From an uncultured Alphaproteobacteria bacterium (lineage in GTDB: Bacteria; Pseudomonadota; Alphaproteobacteria; RF32; CAG-239): a stretch of DNA of 64,000 nucleotides. The notes beneath the pieces are model-generated. The model made no database searches and was not told where the DNA came from. It saw nothing but the letters and a program-made list of their open reading frames with translations. The position numbers and the translations under genes are program-made. The DNA is taken from NCBI GenBank assembly GCA_944391715.1, contig CALXUP010000006.1, forward strand, positions 1,895 through 65,894, read 5' to 3'. Below are positions 3,413 through 54,334 of this stretch, piece by piece. Position 1 is the first letter of the stretch, and every line of letters begins with the position of its first letter.

Positions 3413-5605
3413 TTATTCTCTTATCGGTTTGATAACGATTGTCGACAAGGCCGGCAGTACGACTTCAATCGAATATTCTTTGCCGTTGGCCGGAATGTCG
3501 CTCGCCTGCATAAAGCCCTCGTTCTTGACGCCGCTGCCCCAGTAATTGACATCGTCGCTGTTAAAGATTTCCTGATATTTTATCCGCTCATGAACGCCGA
3601 CGCGGAAATCGTGCCGAACAACCGGCGTGAAGTTGCAGATAACAATCATATAGTCGCCGGGCGTCGAGCCTTTGCGCATATAAGAAATTACACTGTCGTC
3701 GGCGTTGCTGTGATCAATCCACTCAAAACCGCGATAGTCAAAATCAACCTCATAAAAGGCCGGATTGCCTTTGTACATATAGTTCAAATCGCGGACGCAG
3801 TTTTGCATTCCCTTATACATCGGGTATTGCAGCAGATGCCACCGCAGGCTCTCTTCCGAGTTCCATTCCCAATCCTGGCCAAACTCGCAGCCCATAAACA
3901 AAAGCTTTTTGCCCGGGTGGGTATACATAAAGCCGTAATATGCCCTCAGGTTGGCAAACTTCTGCCATTCATCACCCGGCATTTTGGACAACATAGAACC
4001 TTTGCCGTGAACAACCTCGTCATGCGAAATCGGCAGAATGAAATTTTCATTAAAGGCATAAAGCAGACCAAATGTCAGCATTCCATGGTGGAACCTTCTA
4101 TATATCGGGTCTTTGCTCATATATTTCAAGGTATCGTTCATCCAGCCCATATTCCACTTGTATCCGAAACCGAGACCGCCCATTGTTGTCGGGCGGGAAA
4201 CCATCGGCCAAGCCGTGGACTCTTCAGCGCAGGTAAACGCCCCTTTGTTCTGACCGTAAACCAGCTCGTTCATCCGGCGCAGGAAAGAGATGGCTTCCAG
4301 GTTCTCGTTGCCGCCGTAAATATTGGGAATCCATTCGCCGTTTTTACGGGAATAATCCAGATACAGCATTGAGGCAACGGCATCAACGCGCAGCCCGTCG
4401 ATATGAAATTCCTTGAGCCAGTACAACGCGCTTGCGCACAAGAAGTTGCAAACTTCTGTCCGGCCGTAGTTATAAATTTTTGTTCCCCAGTCGGAATGTT
4501 CGCCTTTGCGCGGGTCGGCGTGTTCATACAAATGTGTGCCGTCAAACTCGTTTAACCCGTGGCCGTCTTTCGGGAAATGCGCCGGAACCCAGTCCATAAT
4601 TACGGCAATGTTTGCCTCGTGGAATTTATCAATCAAATAACGCAGGTCGTCCGGCGTGCCGAAACGGCTGGTCGGAGAAAACATTCCGACAACCTGATAG
4701 CCCCAGGAAGAATCCAACGGGTGTTCCGTCAGCGGCATAAACTCGACATGAGTAAAGCCCATATTGCTGACATAAGGCACCAGCGTATCCGCCAATTCGC
4801 GGTAGGTCAAAAATTCGTTGCCGTCTTTACGACGCCATGAACCGAGGTGAACCTCGTAAATCGACATCGGCTTGTCAAAACTGTTGTGCTCTTCGCGATA
4901 GTTCATCCAGCCGTCGTCATTCCAATGATACTTCGACTCATAAACAACCGAAGCGGTATTCGGGCGTTTTTCAGACCAGAAAGCTACCGGATCAGATTTG
5001 ACCAGAATATAGTCTTCCTGCGTTTTGACTTCGTATTTATAAAGCTCGCCTTCTTTGAGGCCGGGGATAAAAATATCCCAGACGCCGCAGGTCGGATGTT
5101 TGCGCATAACATGGGCGCGGCCGTCCCAATTGTTAAAGCCGCCGACAACACTGACACGCTTGGCGTTCGGTGCCCAGACGGCGAATCCAACGCCTTTGAT
5201 GCCGTTCATTTCCATAACATGGGCGCCGAGTTTTTTATACATTTCAAGGTGGTTGCCCTCTGCCAGAAGATAGACGTCAATATCGCCTAAGACAGAAGGG
5301 AATCTGTATTCATCTTCTTTGAGGTAAAACTGTCCGAGGTCGTTTTCAATCCGAAAGCGATATGGAAAATTATCAACAGCTCCGACATTGATTTGGAAAA
5401 ATCCGCGATCATCAAGTTTGGTTAAAAATCCGAGCGAGGAATCATCATATTTGAGCAGTTCAACCGACTTGGCATGCGGCTGATATGTGCGGATAAAAAC
5501 CTCTTTGCTGCCCTTGTCTTTGTGGATGCCCAAAACGGCAAAAACATTGCCGTGATTGCCGGTTATAACCGCTTCCATTTCTTCTTTAGATAATAAATTT
5601 TCCAT
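3413..5605 (-). CDS. glgB: 1,4-alpha-glucan branching enzyme GlgB
   Basis: 730 aa. Branching-enzyme signatures (GFTHVEFMPL, IDGLRVDAVASMLY, GGLGFGYKWNMGWMND). Size and domain order are typical. Confidence 0.9.
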   Translation of the reverse strand: MENLLSKEEMEAVITGNHGNVFAVLGIHKDKGSKEVFIRTYQPHAKSVELLKYDDSSLGFLTKLDDRGFFQINVGAVDNFPYRFRIENDLGQFYLKEDEYRFPSVLGDIDVYLLAEGNHLEMYKKLGAHVMEMNGIKGVGFAVWAPNAKRVSVVGGFNNWDGRAHVMRKHPTCGVWDIFIPGLKEGELYKYEVKTQEDYILVKSDPVAFWSEKRPNTASVVYESKYHWNDDGWMNYREEHNSFDKPMSIYEVHLGSWRRKDGNEFLTYRELADTLVPYVSNMGFTHVEFMPLTEHPLDSSWGYQVVGMFSPTSRFGTPDDLRYLIDKFHEANIAVIMDWVPAHFPKDGHGLNEFDGTHLYEHADPRKGEHSDWGTKIYNYGRTEVCNFLCASALYWLKEFHIDGLRVDAVASMLYLDYSRKNGEWIPNIYGGNENLEAISFLRRMNELVYGQNKGAFTCAEESTAWPMVSRPTTMGGLGFGYKWNMGWMNDTLKYMSKDPIYRRFHHGMLTFGLLYAFNENFILPISHDEVVHGKGSMLSKMPGDEWQKFANLRAYYGFMYTHPGKKLLFMGCEFGQDWEWNSEESLRWHLLQYPMYKGMQNCVRDLNYMYKGNPAFYEVDFDYRGFEWIDHSNADDSVISYMRKGSTPGDYMIVICNFTPVVRHDFRVGVHERIKYQEIFNSDDVNYWGSGVKNEGFMQASDIPANGKEYSIEVVLPALSTIVIKPIRE

Positions 5606-5819
5606 AAATATACCTCGTATAAAATACTAAAAAATCAGATTAAAAAACCTTCAGATTTATCTATAAAATTTATTGATGATTTTTGCAACAATTTTAATGC
5701 AGAAATTAAGTTTATTTTGCAAATTTAACAAATTCAAACTTTTAGATATTGACGTATAAAATTTTACGTATATATTAATTGGTGATTGGTAAAAAATTTA
5801 ATTTTTCAGGAGTTATATT

Positions 5820-6062
5820 ATGGCAAATAATTATAATGAAAATGCAATCAGAGAAGCTGCTTACTACATCTGGCAAAATTCCGGATGCCCGTCCGGTATG
5901 GAAAGCCAGCACTGGGCTATGGCTATTGAGCAGTTGTATCATACAAACAGCAAAAGCTCTTGCTCTTCCAGCAAAAAATGCTCTTCTTCGTCTTGCAAAA
6001 AAACTTCTTCCGCAAGCTCGAAAAAAAGCAGCAGCTCTTCTTCTAAAAAGACTTCAAAATAG
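5820..6062 (+). CDS. DUF2934-family small protein with Ser/Lys-rich low-complexity C-terminal tail
   Basis: RBS caggag 8 nt upstream. N-terminus IREAAYYIWQNSGCPSGMESQHWAMAIEQL matches the DUF2934 motif (AYxIWExxGxPxGxxxxxWxxAE). Tail SSKKCSSSSCKKTSSASSKKSSSSSSKK. The overlapping ORF 5779..6072 in another frame is considered spurious. Confidence 0.55.
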   Translation: MANNYNENAIREAAYYIWQNSGCPSGMESQHWAMAIEQLYHTNSKSSCSSSKKCSSSSCKKTSSASSKKSSSSSSKKTSK

Positions 6063-6299
6063 TTTTTCTTAGAGGCAAAATTGTTTGGTAAAAATGTCCG
6101 GTTATATCCCGGGCATTTTTATTTCCTCCGCTCTGAATTCATCCTTTATTTTTTTCTTTCTGTTTTTTTGTTTTGTTTTTTCTTTGAGATATTTCTTTAT
6201 GTTACTTTTTGAGTGCCAAAAAAATTTTTTCTTCCTGTTTTTTATTTATTTTCTTTATGTTACTTTTGTCATGTAACAAAAGTAACCAAAAATACTAGC

Positions 6300-6700
6300 C
6301 CTAAACTCGTTTTCTAAGTCTTCGTGAAAAAGTTCAGGCCGTCTAAGCACAAGGCTAAGACGGCAAGAAAGCACATAGTGCTTTTAATTTCCTCTTTTTC
6401 ACAAAGACTAAGAAGTACTCGTTAAAGGGCGGGTCAACTCCCCCGCCCCTCAGGCTTGAGGGGAGTAGTGCTTCAATTTCGGTTTTTGCTTTCAAACCTA
6501 AGCTATTCGCAAAGGATACCCAGTTGTGCCGGACGAGCGATTGTGCATTAAAGTTTTTGTCATTGCCGGACTTGATCCGGCAATCCACAGGCGACGGCCT
6601 GAGCGGTCAGTTGTTAACATTATGCCTTAGAGACCGCGTTGCTCCATTGTTTTCCACGGTCAAGATTGTACTTTGAAGGTTGGATCCCCGGGGATGGCTG
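6300..6700. repeat. hairpin-rich intergenic repeat island (convergent-terminator region); shares three ordered sequence blocks with the island at 52495-53050
   Basis: Palindromes ggccgtctaagc..gctaagacggc, gggcggg..cccgccc, cccctca..tgagggg. 28 bp gtcattgccggacttgatccggcaatcc (6559-6586) is identical to 52504-52531. Blocks gaccgcgttgctcc (6632-6645) and tggatccccgggg (6681-6693) recur at 52808-52821 and 52857-52869. Confidence 0.55.
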
Positions 6701-49332: not shown

Positions 49333-51795
49333 TTAATATTGTCCGCCAAGCTGAAAATCCCCGCCCTCGTCCGAAGAATAGCCGGAGGCCGGCGTTTCCG
49401 TTTCGGAAGTTGCCGCCGAATCGTCGCCGATAACGCGCTGTCCCTGCTTATCAAAATCAAAATCCGGTTTCAGCGCTTCGACAATCACGGCCTTATCCAT
49501 CGGCGTTGCCGGTTTGCCGGTATTGTGGTTTACCCGGACAAGTTTGATGCCGTTCGGAATACGGAACGGTATATCCGGCTGGTCTTTCAAGGCCTGCTGC
49601 ATAAAGTCATAAAATATCGGCAAGGCCGCCGTTGCGCCGGTCTCGCGTTTGCCAAGCGTCCGGGGCTCGTCAAACCCGATATAAATACCAACAACCAAAT
49701 CCGGCGAAAAACCGATAAACCAAGAATCTTTATTGTCGTTTGTCGTGCCGGTCTTGCCTGCCAAATGACGGTGCAGGCTGCGCAGACGGGCTGCCGTTCC
49801 GCGGACGGCCACACCTTCCAGAATGCTGGTCATCTGATAAGCGCTGAGCGGATCGACAATCTGTTCGCGATTATCCGGCAGTTTCGGCGTTTCCTGATTT
49901 TCATAAAAATCAACATTGCAGCCGGTACATTCCCGTTTGTCATGTTTCAAAATCGTATTTCCCCGGCGGTCCTGAACCTGCTCAATAAAATAAGGTTCAA
50001 TTTTTTTGCCGCCGTTGACAATCATTCCATATCCTGCCACCATATTAATCAATCTGGTATCCGACGCGCCCAAAGACATGGAAAGAAACTTCGGGAGATT
50101 GTCATTAATTCCGAAACGGCGGACATATTCCGAAACTTTATCCATACCGATATCCTGTGCCAGGCGGACGGTCATCAGATTGCGGGATTTTTCTATACCC
50201 TGGCGCAGCGTCGTCAGGCCGTAAAAATTGACCGAATAGTTTTTCGGCTTCCATTTCGGCAGCCCTTCGCCCTGATCCAAAACAAAAGGCGCATCCAAAA
50301 TCAGATCGGTCGGAGAATAGCCGTTATCCAAAGCCGTGATATAAACAAAAGGCTTGAATGAAGAGCCGGTCTGGCGTTTGGCCTGGGTTGCCCGGTTAAA
50401 CTGCGACTGAGAAAAATCGTATCCGCCGACGGCTGCCAAAACCTTGCCGGTGTGGGGATCCATGGCGACCAAAGCCCCCTGAACATTCGGCACCTGACGC
50501 AGGTGATAGCTGTCTGCCGCAAGCTTTTTGGAGGCAATTTCTTTTTCCGTGGCCTTTTCGGCATAAACGACATCGCCTTTTTTCAGAAACTTGGCGGCAC
50601 TGTCAATCGGACCGGTAATTCCCTGATTTTTCAAGGCCTTTCCGGCTTTGGGCATCAGCGACAGAGGAATTACTCCGCGCTCACCGTCAGCGGTTTCAAT
50701 TACAGCCTTGTCTTTGCTCACTTCAAGAACAACGACTTTTTGCCAGCCCTCATCCGCTCCCTTTGGCATTTCTACCTTGGCCAGAGTTTCTTTATAGTCG
50801 CCGTCCAGATTAATATTGGTTACCGCACCGCGCCAGCCATGACGGTCATCATAAGCCTTGATTCCTTTTCTGAAGACTTCGGTCGCGATTTCCTGAAGTT
50901 TCGGATCAACCGTTGTTCTGACCAGCAGCCCGCCTTCATATAAGGCATCATCCCCGAATTTGTCCGTAATCCGGCGGCGGACTTCCTCACTGAAATATTG
51001 GGCGTCTTTAACAAACTCATTGTTGCGTTCTATGGTTACCAACGGCTTTTCTTTGGCGGCAACCGCCTCTTCTTCGCTGATATAGCCGTCCTCGCGCATC
51101 CGGTCAATCACCCAGTTACGGCGGGCAATGGCAGCCTCTTTTTTGGTCTTCGGGTTATAATTGTTCGGCCCTTTCGGCAAAGCTGCCAGATAAGCCGCCT
51201 CTTCCAAGCTCAATTCATCCAGCGATTTGCCAAAATAATTCAGCGCTGCAGCCCCGACGCCGTAAGACCGGTTGCCGAGATAAATTTCGTTCAAATAAAG
51301 TTCCAGAATATGGTCTTTGCTGAAAGCCTGTTCAATCCGGGTTGCCAGAATGGCTTCCTTGATTTTCCGGCTGTACGAAAGCTCGGAAGAAAGCAAAAAG
51401 TTTTTGGCAACCTGCTGCGTAATCGTCGAAGCGCCGGCCGGACGTGCGCCGGTTCCGATTTTTTTGATATTTCCCAAAACGGCACGGACAATACCGACAT
51501 AATCAATTCCGGAATGGGAATAAAACTTTTTGTCTTCTGCCGCAATAAAGGCATTCTTCACTTTTTCCGGAATCTTATCAATCGGCACAAAAAAACGCTT
51601 TTCCGTGGCGTATTCCATCAACAGGCGTCCGTCGCCGGCATAAAGGCGGGTGGTTACCGCAGGCTCGTATTTGGCCAGTTGGCGATAATCGGGAAGTTTG
51701 CTGGAATAATCCCAGATTGTGCTGATGATGACAACAAAAGCAATGACCGCAAAAAAGAAAAATGTGCTTAATAATGAAGACAGCGTTTTTAACAT
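49333..51795 (-). CDS. mrcA: penicillin-binding protein 1A (bifunctional transglycosylase/transpeptidase)
   Basis: N-terminal TM, GT51 motifs (EDKKFYSHSGID, RxxxTITQQ), transpeptidase SxxK (GSSFKP), SxN, KTGT. 820 aa. Confidence 0.9.
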   Translation of the reverse strand: MLKTLSSLLSTFFFFAVIAFVVIISTIWDYSSKLPDYRQLAKYEPAVTTRLYAGDGRLLMEYATEKRFFVPIDKIPEKVKNAFIAAEDKKFYSHSGIDYVGIVRAVLGNIKKIGTGARPAGASTITQQVAKNFLLSSELSYSRKIKEAILATRIEQAFSKDHILELYLNEIYLGNRSYGVGAAALNYFGKSLDELSLEEAAYLAALPKGPNNYNPKTKKEAAIARRNWVIDRMREDGYISEEEAVAAKEKPLVTIERNNEFVKDAQYFSEEVRRRITDKFGDDALYEGGLLVRTTVDPKLQEIATEVFRKGIKAYDDRHGWRGAVTNINLDGDYKETLAKVEMPKGADEGWQKVVVLEVSKDKAVIETADGERGVIPLSLMPKAGKALKNQGITGPIDSAAKFLKKGDVVYAEKATEKEIASKKLAADSYHLRQVPNVQGALVAMDPHTGKVLAAVGGYDFSQSQFNRATQAKRQTGSSFKPFVYITALDNGYSPTDLILDAPFVLDQGEGLPKWKPKNYSVNFYGLTTLRQGIEKSRNLMTVRLAQDIGMDKVSEYVRRFGINDNLPKFLSMSLGASDTRLINMVAGYGMIVNGGKKIEPYFIEQVQDRRGNTILKHDKRECTGCNVDFYENQETPKLPDNREQIVDPLSAYQMTSILEGVAVRGTAARLRSLHRHLAGKTGTTNDNKDSWFIGFSPDLVVGIYIGFDEPRTLGKRETGATAALPIFYDFMQQALKDQPDIPFRIPNGIKLVRVNHNTGKPATPMDKAVIVEALKPDFDFDKQGQRVIGDDSAATSETETPASGYSSDEGGDFQLGGQY

Positions 51796-51966
51796 CTACA
51801 AATCCGTTATTTTAGGGTATTTTAATCTATTTGTTCAGAATCTTGTGCTTAATCTATTACAATTTAAGAAAAATGCAAAGAAATTTTTTATTTTTCCCCT
51901 TTAGCTTTCCACTTCTGAACCAATCTGTCTTCTAGCCAAAATACCCATTATACTTTTCATTATGTG

Positions 51967-51995
51967 TTGACTATTCACTTGAGCTGTGATATAAT
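51967..51995 (+). promoter_or_regulatory. near-consensus sigma70 promoter
   Basis: TTGACT (51967-51972), a 17 bp spacer, then TATAAT (51990-51995). About 30 bp upstream of the gggagag RBS of the Cys-rich gene. Confidence 0.55.
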
Positions 51996-52026
51996 TTCCC
52001 TATGTGTTTGTTTTGACGGGAGAGAA

Positions 52027-52491
52027 ATGATGAAACAATATATTTTGGGGAGCGTCTTATGCTGCACCGCTCTTACTTCCGGTTATGCCTTAGCGGCCTG
52101 CACCCAAACGCCGGATTGTGAGACGATGGGATACATATATACTGCCGACGAATGTCCGAACGGCGGCGTTAAATGTCCGTTTGATATCAGCAAATATTTT
52201 TGTTTCGATCCAAGCGAAAATGCCCCCTCTGTTCCGACGAGCGGATATTGTTGTGGATACACTAATTACTGCGGATACAGTGGCGGAACGTCAAGCTCTA
52301 ATGACTCTACTTGTCAAAATTATTATGGCAGAAGTTGTTATGAACAATGTAAAAGCTATGGTTTTACAGATTGTAATGATTTGCAGGATAGTTGTCGAAC
52401 CTCCGGCGGTACTCCGGTCTTCCAAGGTTGTAACGGTACCGGTGATAACGACCTTTACTATGCCCACGGCGTCACCTTCGCGTGCCAGTAG
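52027..52491 (+). CDS. secreted cysteine-rich small protein (19 Cys in ~132-aa mature part)
   Basis: RBS gggagag + ATGATG. Signal peptide MMKQYILGSVLCCTALTSGYALA. Mature region rich in C/G/Y/T/S/N/D (CTQTPDCETMGY...GYCCGYTNYCGYSGG...CQNYYGRSCYEQCKSYGFTDCNDLQDSC...). No family recognised. Confidence 0.6.
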   Translation: MMKQYILGSVLCCTALTSGYALAACTQTPDCETMGYIYTADECPNGGVKCPFDISKYFCFDPSENAPSVPTSGYCCGYTNYCGYSGGTSSSNDSTCQNYYGRSCYEQCKSYGFTDCNDLQDSCRTSGGTPVFQGCNGTGDNDLYYAHGVTFACQ

Positions 52492-52494
52492 TCG

Positions 52495-53050
52495 TCTCTG
52501 CCTGTCATTGCCGGACTTGATCCGGCAATCCCGATAGACAAAGAAGCCATATAATTGACCTGGATCTCCGGGTGTAAATTCCCGCAAGCGGGCCCCTTGG
52601 CACTTCGCCAGCTCAGCGATTTTATCCGGCAGTCCCAGTGCCTGCGGCACGCGACGCCGAATGCAATTGCGTCCCGTAGGGTTCGAACTTCGTACAAATC
52701 TAAGCTAAAGCTAAGGATTTGCACTCGTTCTCACCAACTATCGACTTCAAGCCCGGGGATGACCTGCTCGGCAGGCGCGCGGCGAACTGAAAGCACTGTG
52801 TTCCAGGGACCGCGTTGCTCCGGCGGAGGTTGTGAATGACTTTGTGCTTTGAAGTATGGATCCCCGGGTCGCAGCCCGGGGATGACAAAAAACAAAAACA
52901 GCCCGGGGATGACGAAAGAAAAAAGAGTCCGGGGATGACAAATAAGAAAAAGAGCCTTGGGGATGACAAATAAGAAAAAGAACCCGGAAATGACCTGCAC
53001 GGCAGGTGTGCGGCGAACTTTACTTGCATTAACAGCTATATTTTCAGATA
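52495..53050. repeat. repeat island: 28 bp palindrome-containing block, two copies of a ~45 bp element flanking four 27 bp tandem repeats
   Basis: gtcattgccggacttgatccggcaatcc (52504-52531) is identical to 6559-6586. cccggggatgacctgctcggcaggcgcgcggcgaact (52746-52790) is similar to cccggaaatgacctgcacggcaggtgtgcggcgaact (52984-53022). Tandem units cccggggatgac[a/g]aa..aaaaa.ag about 4 times across 52872-52983. Confidence 0.6.
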
Positions 53051-53068
53051 ATTCAAAATATTTTTCAG

Positions 53069-54334
53069 TTAAAACAGCGAGGCGTGGTGCATATTCTCAA
53101 AATATTTATCTATGGCCGAGGCTGCCGATTTTGCCAGTTTCTTACGATATGACGGCTGACGCAGAAGTTTTTCTTCCGAGCGGTTTGACAAATATCCCAT
53201 TTCCAGCAGGACGGAAGGAATATCCGGCGCTTTTAAGACGGCGAATCCGGCAAAGCGGTGTGTGTTGTCGAGAAGTTTGCAGCTTTTGCGCATTTCCGAT
53301 ACCATAAAGGTTGCAAATTCCGATGAACGGTTCAGAGTTTCGCGTTGTGCCAGGTTAATCAAAATATCGGAAACTTCTTTGGAATGTTCGGCAAAGTTCA
53401 GTCCGGCAATCACATCGGCTTTATTTTCACGTTCGGCCAGAGCCGCGGCCTCTTTGTCGGAAGCCTTTTCAGACAAAGTATAAACCGACAGGCCTTTGGC
53501 ATTGCGGTTTAAGGCACTGTCCGCATGGATGGACAGGAACAAGTCTGCCTTGTATTTGCGGGCTATACGGACGCGTTCGCGCAATGGAATAAAGACATCG
53601 CGGTTGCGGGTCAGATAGACTTTATACTCGCCTTTGGCATCAAGTATTTTTTTCAGCTCCCTTGCCGCAGCCAGCGTGATGTTTTTTTCATACACGCCAG
53701 ACACGCCGATGGCGCCCGGATCTTGTCCGCCGTGGCCGGGATCTAGCACGATGATTTTTTTGGCATTGCGGCGTTTGTTTTCCGCTGCGTCCGATTTCGT
53801 GCTTTTGGCATTTTTGGCGCTTTGGGTGGACGAACCGCCGTCATCCGATACGGCATAAGCAGCGCCGACATGTTTGGAAAAGTCGTTTTCCGAAGTGATT
53901 TCCAAATCAATAACAAAACGCCAGCCGAAATTAATCTGCGGCGGCAGCATAAAGGCTTTTTTGATTATGGCCGGCTGTTTGAGGTCAAAAGCCAGCCGGG
54001 AGGCACCGGTATCAACATTGCGGCCGATGCGCGGATTTTCCAGAACATTATTGGCCGTCAGGCTCTTTTCGACCTTTGAACTCAGCGTAACGCTGTCAAA
54101 GTCAACAACCAGACGGCGCGGCCCGCTTAACAAAAAGACATTGTAGCCGAACTTGGCATTTGTATCAAAAACAATGCGAATACCGCCGGAATTCTGTCCG
54201 ATACGCAAAGACTGAATTGTGGCCGTTGCGGCTTCTGCCTGCCCGCATATCAGCAGATACGACAAAGCAAGCATTGCCGGTACGGCAAGCTTTTTGAAAA
54301 AAACAGAGATATTTTTTTTCAGTTTTTGCAACAT
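53069..54334 (-). CDS. amiC: N-acetylmuramoyl-L-alanine amidase (AMIN domain + Amidase_3)
   Basis: Signal peptide, then an AMIN-like beta domain (ATIQSLRIGQNSGGIRIVFD). Amidase_3 region IVLDPGHGGQDPGAIG...LSIHADS. Confidence 0.85.
   Translation of the reverse strand: MLQKLKKNISVFFKKLAVPAMLALSYLLICGQAEAATATIQSLRIGQNSGGIRIVFDTNAKFGYNVFLLSGPRRLVVDFDSVTLSSKVEKSLTANNVLENPRIGRNVDTGASRLAFDLKQPAIIKKAFMLPPQINFGWRFVIDLEITSENDFSKHVGAAYAVSDDGGSSTQSAKNAKSTKSDAAENKRRNAKKIIVLDPGHGGQDPGAIGVSGVYEKNITLAAARELKKILDAKGEYKVYLTRNRDVFIPLRERVRIARKYKADLFLSIHADSALNRNAKGLSVYTLSEKASDKEAAALAERENKADVIAGLNFAEHSKEVSDILINLAQRETLNRSSEFATFMVSEMRKSCKLLDNTHRFAGFAVLKAPDIPSVLLEMGYLSNRSEEKLLRQPSYRKKLAKSAASAIDKYFENMHHASLF

Follow-up and report, generated by a model that had tools for sequence, protein, structure and literature searches.

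Between mrcA and amiC, in a 64,000-nucleotide stretch of contig CALXUP010000006.1 (GenBank assembly GCA_944391715.1) from an uncultured Alphaproteobacteria bacterium of the RF32/CAG-239 lineage, there is a small gene that would encode an exported, cysteine-rich protein, and an island of repeats follows it. What does this gene specify, and why does it stand at this junction? In the following, the whole stretch of 64,000 nucleotides is called the window, and positions are counted from its first letter. It belongs, as one copy among many, to a large, dispersed and undescribed multigene family. As to what the family does, we see about an even chance that it comprises exported, disulfide-stabilised modular proteins, with a repertoire diversified by recombination between paralogues and with a variable surface that binds something or is itself recognised.

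A single-sequence search returned 36 homologues and a profile search 181, none of them named and none with a Pfam domain, while an exhaustive HMMER search gave 173 representative clusters; no description of the family was found in the literature. The stated sources of the homologues are ‘Alphaproteobacteria bacterium’ metagenome-assembled genomes (MAGs) from the gut of human, mouse and deer, and the comparative data used throughout are metagenome assemblies and bins. In the MAG CASGEB01, a species representative, there are 14 or more loci of the family and 12 or more complete genes, so the original prediction of an accessory insertion gives way to a dispersed multigene family. Two pairs of these loci share a contig (L008 and L011 on contig 9, L007 and L017 on contig 19), and seven loci abut contig ends, as is expected of repeats. 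Other MAGs hold 3–5 loci each, and in one sample two paralogues have matched coverage. The surroundings of the homologues are unrelated housekeeping genes (Xer-like/zeta-KsgA, MFS/nitroreductase, serine dehydratase and mrcA/amiC). One CASGEB01 copy (L017, 686–1306) seems to have a disrupted 5′ end, with an out-of-frame leader before the N-terminal module, and is likely a pseudogene or the product of a sequencing frameshift.

The members of the family share a modular architecture. A signal peptide is followed by an N-terminal module of 39 amino acids (aa) with five cysteines, then by a 50-aa repeat with eight cysteines, which is present in 0–4 copies per member and missing from the window gene, and then by one or two C-terminal domains with ten cysteines. 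The parts of the window gene and its 5′ region, together with the segments discussed below, are as follows.

51932–52211, + strand: constant 5′ cassette of about 280 bp, covering an upstream block, promoter, 5′ untranslated region (5′UTR), signal peptide and N-terminal module
51967–51995, + strand: sigma-70-type promoter, with TTGACT at 51967–51972, a 17-nt spacer and TATAAT at 51990–51995
52018–52024, + strand: ribosome-binding site (RBS) GGGAGAG, read from the sequence and unchanged in 11 paralogues
52027–52491, + strand: coding sequence, 154 aa plus stop from 52027, or 153 aa from 52030
52030–52095, + strand: signal peptide (MKQYILGSVLCCTALTSGYALA), with predicted signal peptidase I cleavage after ALA
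52096–52212, + strand: N-terminal module, residues 24–62 (ACTQTPDCETMGYIYTADECPNGGVKCPFDISKYFCFDP), 39 aa with 5 Cys, nearly invariant in the family
52243–52488, + strand: variable C-terminal domain, residues 73–154, with 10 Cys, modelled as three helices plus a beta-hairpin
52345–52486, + strand: strain-variable mosaic patch, the last ~48 codons, from comparison of the window with locus L038
52432–52482, + strand: hypervariable loop between Cys135 and Cys153, both invariant, at the tip of the beta-hairpin

The open reading frame (ORF) at 52027–52491 translates to the 154-aa sequence first proposed for it, and the motifs CCGY, NYCGYSGG, SCYEQC and DCNDLQDSC are all found in the translation. 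The cysteines had been miscounted, since the precursor has 17 and the 131-aa mature part 15 (11.5%), instead of 19. The window protein has no CXXC motif and no transmembrane segment. In the AlphaFold2 model, built with 92 sequences, residues 73–154 of the C-terminal domain reach a predicted local distance difference test score (pLDDT) of about 89–94. Across the same 92 sequences, conservation is 96% or higher for each of the 15 mature cysteines, and the loop at residues 136–152 has the top column entropy and a variable length.

Comparisons with known proteins and folds were negative. Foldseek searches against the PDB (with two models, that of the C-terminal domain among them) and against viral structures (BFVD) gave best E values above 1. 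At permissive thresholds, Pfam, NCBIfam and PHROGs had no match for the protein, the same three collections gave nothing for its larger relatives, and the family profile found chance-level matches and no solved structure among PDB sequences. The earlier remark that the family is not a recognised one is borne out by these searches. The Sec signal peptide that had been read from the N-terminus is present as well. The combined evidence supports a small, disulfide-rich protein, predicted to be exported by a Sec-type signal, of an unrecognised family.

Large cysteine-rich proteins of 434–1637 aa, with up to 166 cysteines, stand in tandem with small family genes (L024, 3089–4393; L026, 2960–4405; L036, 3260–8173; L011, 2371–3738). 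They have a ‘CFLPDC’ motif after the signal peptide and no Pfam match, and several of them terminate in an internal N-terminal module plus a C-terminal domain.

The two ends of the gene differ sharply in their conservation pattern. The DNA of the cassette is 85–98% identical to copies at 12 other loci, and the flanks at those loci are unalignable. In a sliding-window comparison, mean pairwise identity is 0.84–0.96 within the cassette and 0.05–0.46 outside it. By the Nei-Gojobori method, the N-terminal part has a proportion of synonymous differences (pS) of 0.31 and of nonsynonymous differences (pN) of 0.05, with a ratio of the corresponding rates (dN/dS) of about 0.1; in some pairs from different loci pS is just 0.03–0.16. 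For the C-terminal domain, the values between paralogues are about 0.70 (saturated) for pS and about 0.33 for pN. From the low N-terminal pS against the saturated C-terminal pS, it follows that the 5′ ends are homogenised or constrained at the nucleotide level and that the tails are old and divergent. The dN/dS of the N-terminal part, the 181 homologues and the conservation of the 15 mature cysteines also establish that this is a genuine gene, beyond a chance ORF.

The cassette contains the expression signals of the gene. The promoter that had been proposed (TTGACT, 17 nt, TATAAT) agrees with the consensus at 11 of 12 positions, is the best among the promoter-like sites of the region and has an extended −10 TG at 51987–51988. 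It is present in all 11 window-type copies; among the 11 paralogous copies the −35 hexamer is identical, the −10 hexamer is TATAAT or TATAGT and the spacer is variable. The 5′UTR is likewise unchanged across the paralogous copies, and so is the RBS, which had been called strong and is a good one. Because the hexamers, the 5′UTR and the RBS are kept while the spacer varies, selection on promoter function is indicated, and strong expression of the gene would be expected. A block of about 35 nt rich in A and T (51932–51966; TAGCCAAAAT...CATTAT) abuts the −35 hexamer. Every window-type paralogue has kept this block, which might bind a regulator or act as an UP element.

Translation probably starts at 52030, one codon after the annotated start, to give 153 aa. 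There is an adjacent ATG pair at 52027–52032, of which the second (52030) is 5 nt past the RBS, and the alignment of window-type copies has ten paralogues with a single ATG, 5 nt past the RBS, which favours the later start. At the other end of the gene, a scan for canonical intrinsic terminators 3′ of the stop codon found none. A structured RNA at the locus was rejected on the basis of an Rfam scan of 51700–53200, which returned no RNA family, and an exact 24-mer of the 5′UTR had no match among JGI metagenome contigs.

Does the gene belong to the junction, or was it inserted there? The neighbours had been named correctly, as they encode proteins of PBP1A type (Transgly + Transpeptidase) and AmiC type (AMIN + Amidase_3). 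An accessory insertion between them had been suggested, with presence or absence among relatives as the check, and this suggestion failed: in each of the four related genomes examined, either one or three genes of the family stand at the junction. The two more distant relatives have three of them in tandem there. Since the relatives all hold family genes at this place, and since the contents differ, this is a conserved site of the family at which the genes are swapped between lineages.

Two of the comparisons locate the change. The L038 strain is 98.3% identical to the window over 5.6 kb, and its gene equals the window gene as far as about 52344 and once more from the final cysteine codon onwards. 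The stretch of about 140 nt between these points is heavily diverged, with a 9-nt indel, substitutions of all base types and sharp bounds. The second comparison is with L016, the sister-species locus (order prfB-mrcA-gene-amiC-rne), where the flanks are 92–96% identical to the window. Its cassette is merely 84–89% identical, 52212–53007 is without homology, and homology is back at 53008; other cassettes of the same genome are closer to the window (91–93%). Because cassette and body of L016 differ though the flanks match, and because cassettes from other loci are closer, the whole unit appears to have been exchanged between loci in one lineage.

Locus L037 (ERZ24773257 NODE_6107, 4903–6166) joins an MdoG-GT-NUDIX-MFS locus to the mrcA-locus allele, the repeat island and the amiC 3′ end. 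The junction falls exactly at the constant cassette, with 4x coverage. This is probably a chimeric assembly, or else two loci of the family have truly undergone a large rearrangement, and the identical protein at an apparent second locus was excluded from the evidence as a probable chimera.

The repeat island that had been noticed beside the gene does adjoin it and is composed of the following elements.

52492–53068, no strand: repeat island with a palindrome like repetitive extragenic palindromic (REP) sequences, a 205-bp element, 37-nt direct repeats and a 27-nt tandem array
52504–52531, + strand: REP-like palindrome GTCATTGCCGGA-CTTGA-TCCGGCAATCC, 12 nt past the stop codon, a hairpin in the minimum-free-energy fold
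52561–52763, no strand: 205-bp repeated element, found inverted at L026 6450–6654 with 89% identity
52752–52788, + strand: 37-nt direct repeat, copy 1 (CCCGGGGATGACCTGCTCGGCAGG...), with related copies beside family genes elsewhere
52873–52994, + strand: 27-nt tandem array (AGCCCGGGGATGACAAATAAGAAAAAG), 4.5 copies
52983–53019, + strand: 37-nt direct repeat, copy 2, near the right end of the segment that is non-homologous to the sister-species locus

At more than 10 loci, a family gene has next to it a copy of the REP-like palindrome that is 96–100% identical. Of the island-like bases in 32 non-redundant loci, 98% lie no more than 600 bp from a family gene, a zone that makes up 19% of the sequence, and island-like sequence is found near a family gene in 17 of the 32. 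The island itself differs between strains, as L038 carries an extra 26-nt partial REP-like copy right after the stop codon (5484–5508, against window 52503). The hairpin at 52504–52531 has no U-tract behind it and is a possible terminator or mRNA-stabilising element; more generally, the hairpins of the island may serve to terminate the transcript or to make it more stable. The homology for moving variable bodies between loci may likewise come from the island, in combination with the 5′ cassette. A tblastn search of the island for remnants of further family genes found none that was convincing.

Such repeat elements also occur away from the family. A further small island of the REP-like kind (window 6559–6700) is intergenic, with no family gene nearby, and contains an exact copy of the 28-mer GTCATTGCCGGACTTGATCCGGCAATCC at 6559–6586 and CCCGGGGATGGC about 100 nt further. 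The 205-bp element acts like a small mobile element of the miniature inverted-repeat transposable element (MITE) kind, and its L026 copy lies between the last family gene and amiC, at the mrcA-amiC junction of a different species.

Where would these proteins go? An AxA-type site lies 0–4 residues before the invariant first cysteine in all 88 members that have the N-terminal module, and the most parsimonious assumption for the window protein is that signal peptidase I cleaves it after Ala23. Proteins with Lcl_C, BspA-type leucine-rich repeat (LRR)/DUF285 and phage tail-fibre-like C-termini begin with the same N-terminal module. As these are typical surface or adhesin passengers, a common destination in the envelope or at the surface is suggested, and the module might itself be a signal of a new kind, for targeting or anchoring. 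It is unannotated, and 170 or more protein clusters share it and carry C-terminal passengers of very different kinds; the proteins concerned include P0047, P0049, P0052, P0071, P0143 and P0154 (Lcl_C), P0101 (LRR_5/DUF285) and P0148 (tail-fibre PHROGs).

Under the explanation that we favour, each copy would be built from the constant cassette of about 280 bp, a variable body and often a 3′ island of REP-like repeats. The cassette would give every copy uniform strong expression and a common route of export or targeting. The Sec system would carry the protein to the periplasm, where seven disulfides could form, and the N-terminal module would route or tether it to the cell envelope or surface. 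The compact C-terminal domain would then display its variable loops, as a surface that binds or is itself recognised. Recombination or gene conversion between paralogues would create the diversity, with the cassette and the repeat island as homology arms, and the resulting strain-specific repertoires might serve escape from host immunoglobulin A (IgA) or phage, or a wider ligand range. Among the functions that the original prediction listed, an adhesin or other binding module appears the most compatible with the evidence.

Other sources of variation were considered and rejected. For the target of a diversity-generating retroelement (DGR), the 64-kb window has no second copy of 52301–52491 and no template repeat, the mosaic patch has its indel and its substitutions of every base type, and there is no reverse transcriptase, the neighbouring genes being PBP1A, AmiC, RNase E and similar. 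An invertible promoter or shufflon was discarded because just weak short inverted repeats surround the promoter and the family loci have no recombinase as a regular neighbour, with a Xer-like gene beside one of them only. Phase variation by a repeat tract was dismissed as well, with no tandem repeat in 51700–52490 and a leader of constant length in 11 copies. A phage origin was rejected too, as there is no IMG/VR relative, no PHROG match and no BFVD fold match, and a weak tail-fibre match is limited to one distant protein that shares the N-terminal module alone.

Several points weigh against the favoured explanation. No secretion or anchoring mechanism was identified, and a Sec/signal peptidase I signal alone in a Gram-negative cell means the periplasm. 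The AlphaFold confidence of the N-terminal module is below 50, so its fold stays without a model. The overall dN/dS of the C-terminal domain is 0.2–0.7, and because this is below 1, it does not show positive selection. Many samples carry the same alleles (P0011 on 10 contigs, P0196 on 27), so the variation is at the population level and is not rapid programmed switching; no phase-variation device was found in the form of a leader repeat tract or an invertible promoter. The evidence for exchange consists of a few locus comparisons from metagenome assemblies, which are prone to chimeras at repeats, and the copy number is derived from a binned MAG.

The destination is where the first alternative departs. 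Window-type copies, with a signal peptide that ends in ...YALA-A-C, could be variable outer-membrane lipoproteins, comparable to the surface lipoproteins of Mycoplasma and Borrelia, that signal peptidase II cleaves before Cys25 and that are lipidated there; we regard this as possible but not likely. The window segment ALTSGYALAAC fits a PROSITE-like lipobox (PS51257-type pattern, [LVI][ASTVI][GAS]-C where the signal peptide ends), and its LAAC is among the lipobox patterns found in 18 of the 88 members. Processing by signal peptidase I leaves an odd number of 15 mature cysteines, while lipidation of Cys25 leaves 14 for seven disulfides, and some internal copies of the N-terminal module (P0080, P0148) are without the first cysteine and have four. 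However, the remaining 70 of 88 have R, Y, W, N or Q at the lipobox −3 position (VRAAC, AYGAC) and cannot be lipoproteins, yet these 70 keep the same invariant cysteine, and the AxA site is there in every one of the 88. In more distant proteins with the N-terminal module, T, P, D, E or N directly precedes the cysteine. One processing route for the whole family is the more parsimonious account.

A wider version of the favoured explanation can also be put forward, as a rather unlikely one. It holds that the family forms an unrecognised combinatorial system of surface variation, in which the fixed cassette and the REP-like island bracket exchangeable cysteine-knot modules (the N-terminal module, the 8-Cys repeat in 0–4 copies and the 10-Cys domain with its hypervariable loop in 1–2 copies). 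Recombination among more than 14 loci would then make strain-specific repertoires of protease-resistant binding proteins, and the N-terminal module would be a new signal for envelope targeting or anchoring that many adhesin-like proteins share.

If the proteins stay in the periplasm, the Sec default, or are released, they might be disulfide-rich inhibitors of enzymes of the host or of competitors, such as gut proteases or lysozyme, with the hypervariable loop as reactive-site loop. Canonical small protease inhibitors do combine a conserved scaffold with a variable loop, and Gram-negative bacteria have periplasmic inhibitors such as ecotin, Ivy and MliC. The window protein is small and cysteine-rich, with a hypervariable loop between fixed cysteines of a conserved scaffold, the organisms dwell in the gut, and the profile search gave a faint match, short of significance, to haemadin, an inhibitor from leeches (E = 0.078). 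That match is at chance level, however, and lies within the 50-aa repeat that the window protein does not have. Among inhibitor families, none matched significantly in sequence or in fold, and the module shared with lectin-like, LRR and tail-fibre-like proteins is left unexplained; this alternative is quite unlikely.

A structural role seems more improbable still. In this case, intermolecular disulfides would cross-link abundant cysteine-rich proteins into a protective outer layer, as in the chlamydial OmcA/OmcB complex, and the variation would be tolerated drift. The strong conserved promoter and the many copies agree with such a role, the odd cysteine number permits one intermolecular bond, and the very large cysteine-rich relatives (434–1637 aa) are in the same genomes. 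But there is no homology to Omc proteins, and drift fails to explain mosaic patches with clear bounds, a single hypervariable loop on a conserved scaffold and the replacement of whole units from locus to locus.

The metal-binding function that had been suggested found no support, and a metallothionein or metal-storage protein was rejected, as there is no Pfam or NCBIfam match and no CXXC motif, and the protein would be exported to an oxidising compartment. A secreted antimicrobial of diversified specificity, the bacteriocin or toxin of the original prediction, is very improbable: the proteins are small, exported and cysteine-rich, their C-terminal part varies and a genome holds several variants, but they have a Sec signal instead of the double-glycine leader (which also rejects a class II bacteriocin or microcin), unrelated housekeeping neighbours at each locus, five different loci among them, no immunity, ABC-exporter or lysis gene consistently adjacent, no toxin signal in Pfam with NCBIfam and PHROGs also negative, and no identified route across the outer membrane.

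The family has a bearing beyond this junction. The lineage is widespread and uncultured in the gut of humans, mice and ruminants. With more than 12 loci of a small genome, the family is a strong candidate for the main interface that faces host, phage or neighbours, because a strong uniform promoter, a common export leader, a rigid disulfide scaffold and strain-specific loops would come together in it. The C-terminal domain is a confidently modelled small domain without structural relatives in the PDB or among viral structures. The constant cassette of 280 bp breaks or mis-joins metagenome assemblies, which is a practical warning.

How does the family compare with known systems of variable surface proteins? 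Among these, families of the Opa and Vsp/Erp kind come nearest to it by analogy. In Neisseria, the Opa proteins are encoded by about a dozen complete, separately promoted and dispersed copies, with a conserved leader and hypervariable exposed regions, and they vary by recombination between loci and between strains (PMC4534519). The window family is alike in its dispersed loci (at least 14 in one MAG), in their own promoters, in a conserved leader region and in the hypervariable C-terminal loop on a conserved scaffold, and its variation, too, would come from recombination between loci and strains. In contrast, Opa is an 8-stranded beta-barrel protein of the outer membrane, while the 131-aa window protein is modelled by AlphaFold2 as a helix and hairpin structure with 15 cysteines and no barrel. 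Opa is switched by CTCTT repeats in the region that codes for the signal peptide, whereas the window leader has no repeat tract and no change of length, and the two proteins have no sequence homology.

A conserved 5′ block with divergent mature regions is also known from lipoproteins, namely Mycoplasma Vsp/Vsa/Vlp and Borrelia Erp with its upstream homology box. The Borrelia Vsp/Vlp proteins form a variable lipoprotein family with a conserved 5′ region (PMC4534519). With these systems, the window family has in common a block of promoter, 5′UTR and signal peptide that is shared by the paralogues, divergent mature parts and strain-specific repertoires. It differs from these lipoproteins in that just 18 of 88 members have a lipobox pattern. 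The known systems often use a single expression site, invertases or silent cassettes, whereas here there is a promoter per copy and there are no inversion signals, and the Mycoplasma and Borrelia proteins are not cysteine-rich.

The variant-specific surface proteins (VSPs) of Giardia form a large and very cysteine-rich family (about 11–12% Cys), with disulfides that are thought to resist intestinal proteases. The likeness is one of analogy only: both families are gut-dwelling and cysteine-rich, with 11.5% Cys in the mature window protein. The VSPs are eukaryotic and have CXXC motifs, a transmembrane helix and a CRGKA tail, none of which the window protein has, and there is no homology between them.

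The last comparison is with proteins of the same lineage, those of Lcl_C (DUF1566) and BspA-type LRR kind. Their passengers are Pfam-known, lectin-like or LRR, whereas the C-terminal domain of the window protein is unrelated to these and unannotated. Both groups share the signal peptide and the N-terminal module over query residues 2–65 (E values 1e-8 to 1e-4), with the common pattern C-x5-DC-x3-GY-x-Y/T...CPFD-x2-K-x-FC.

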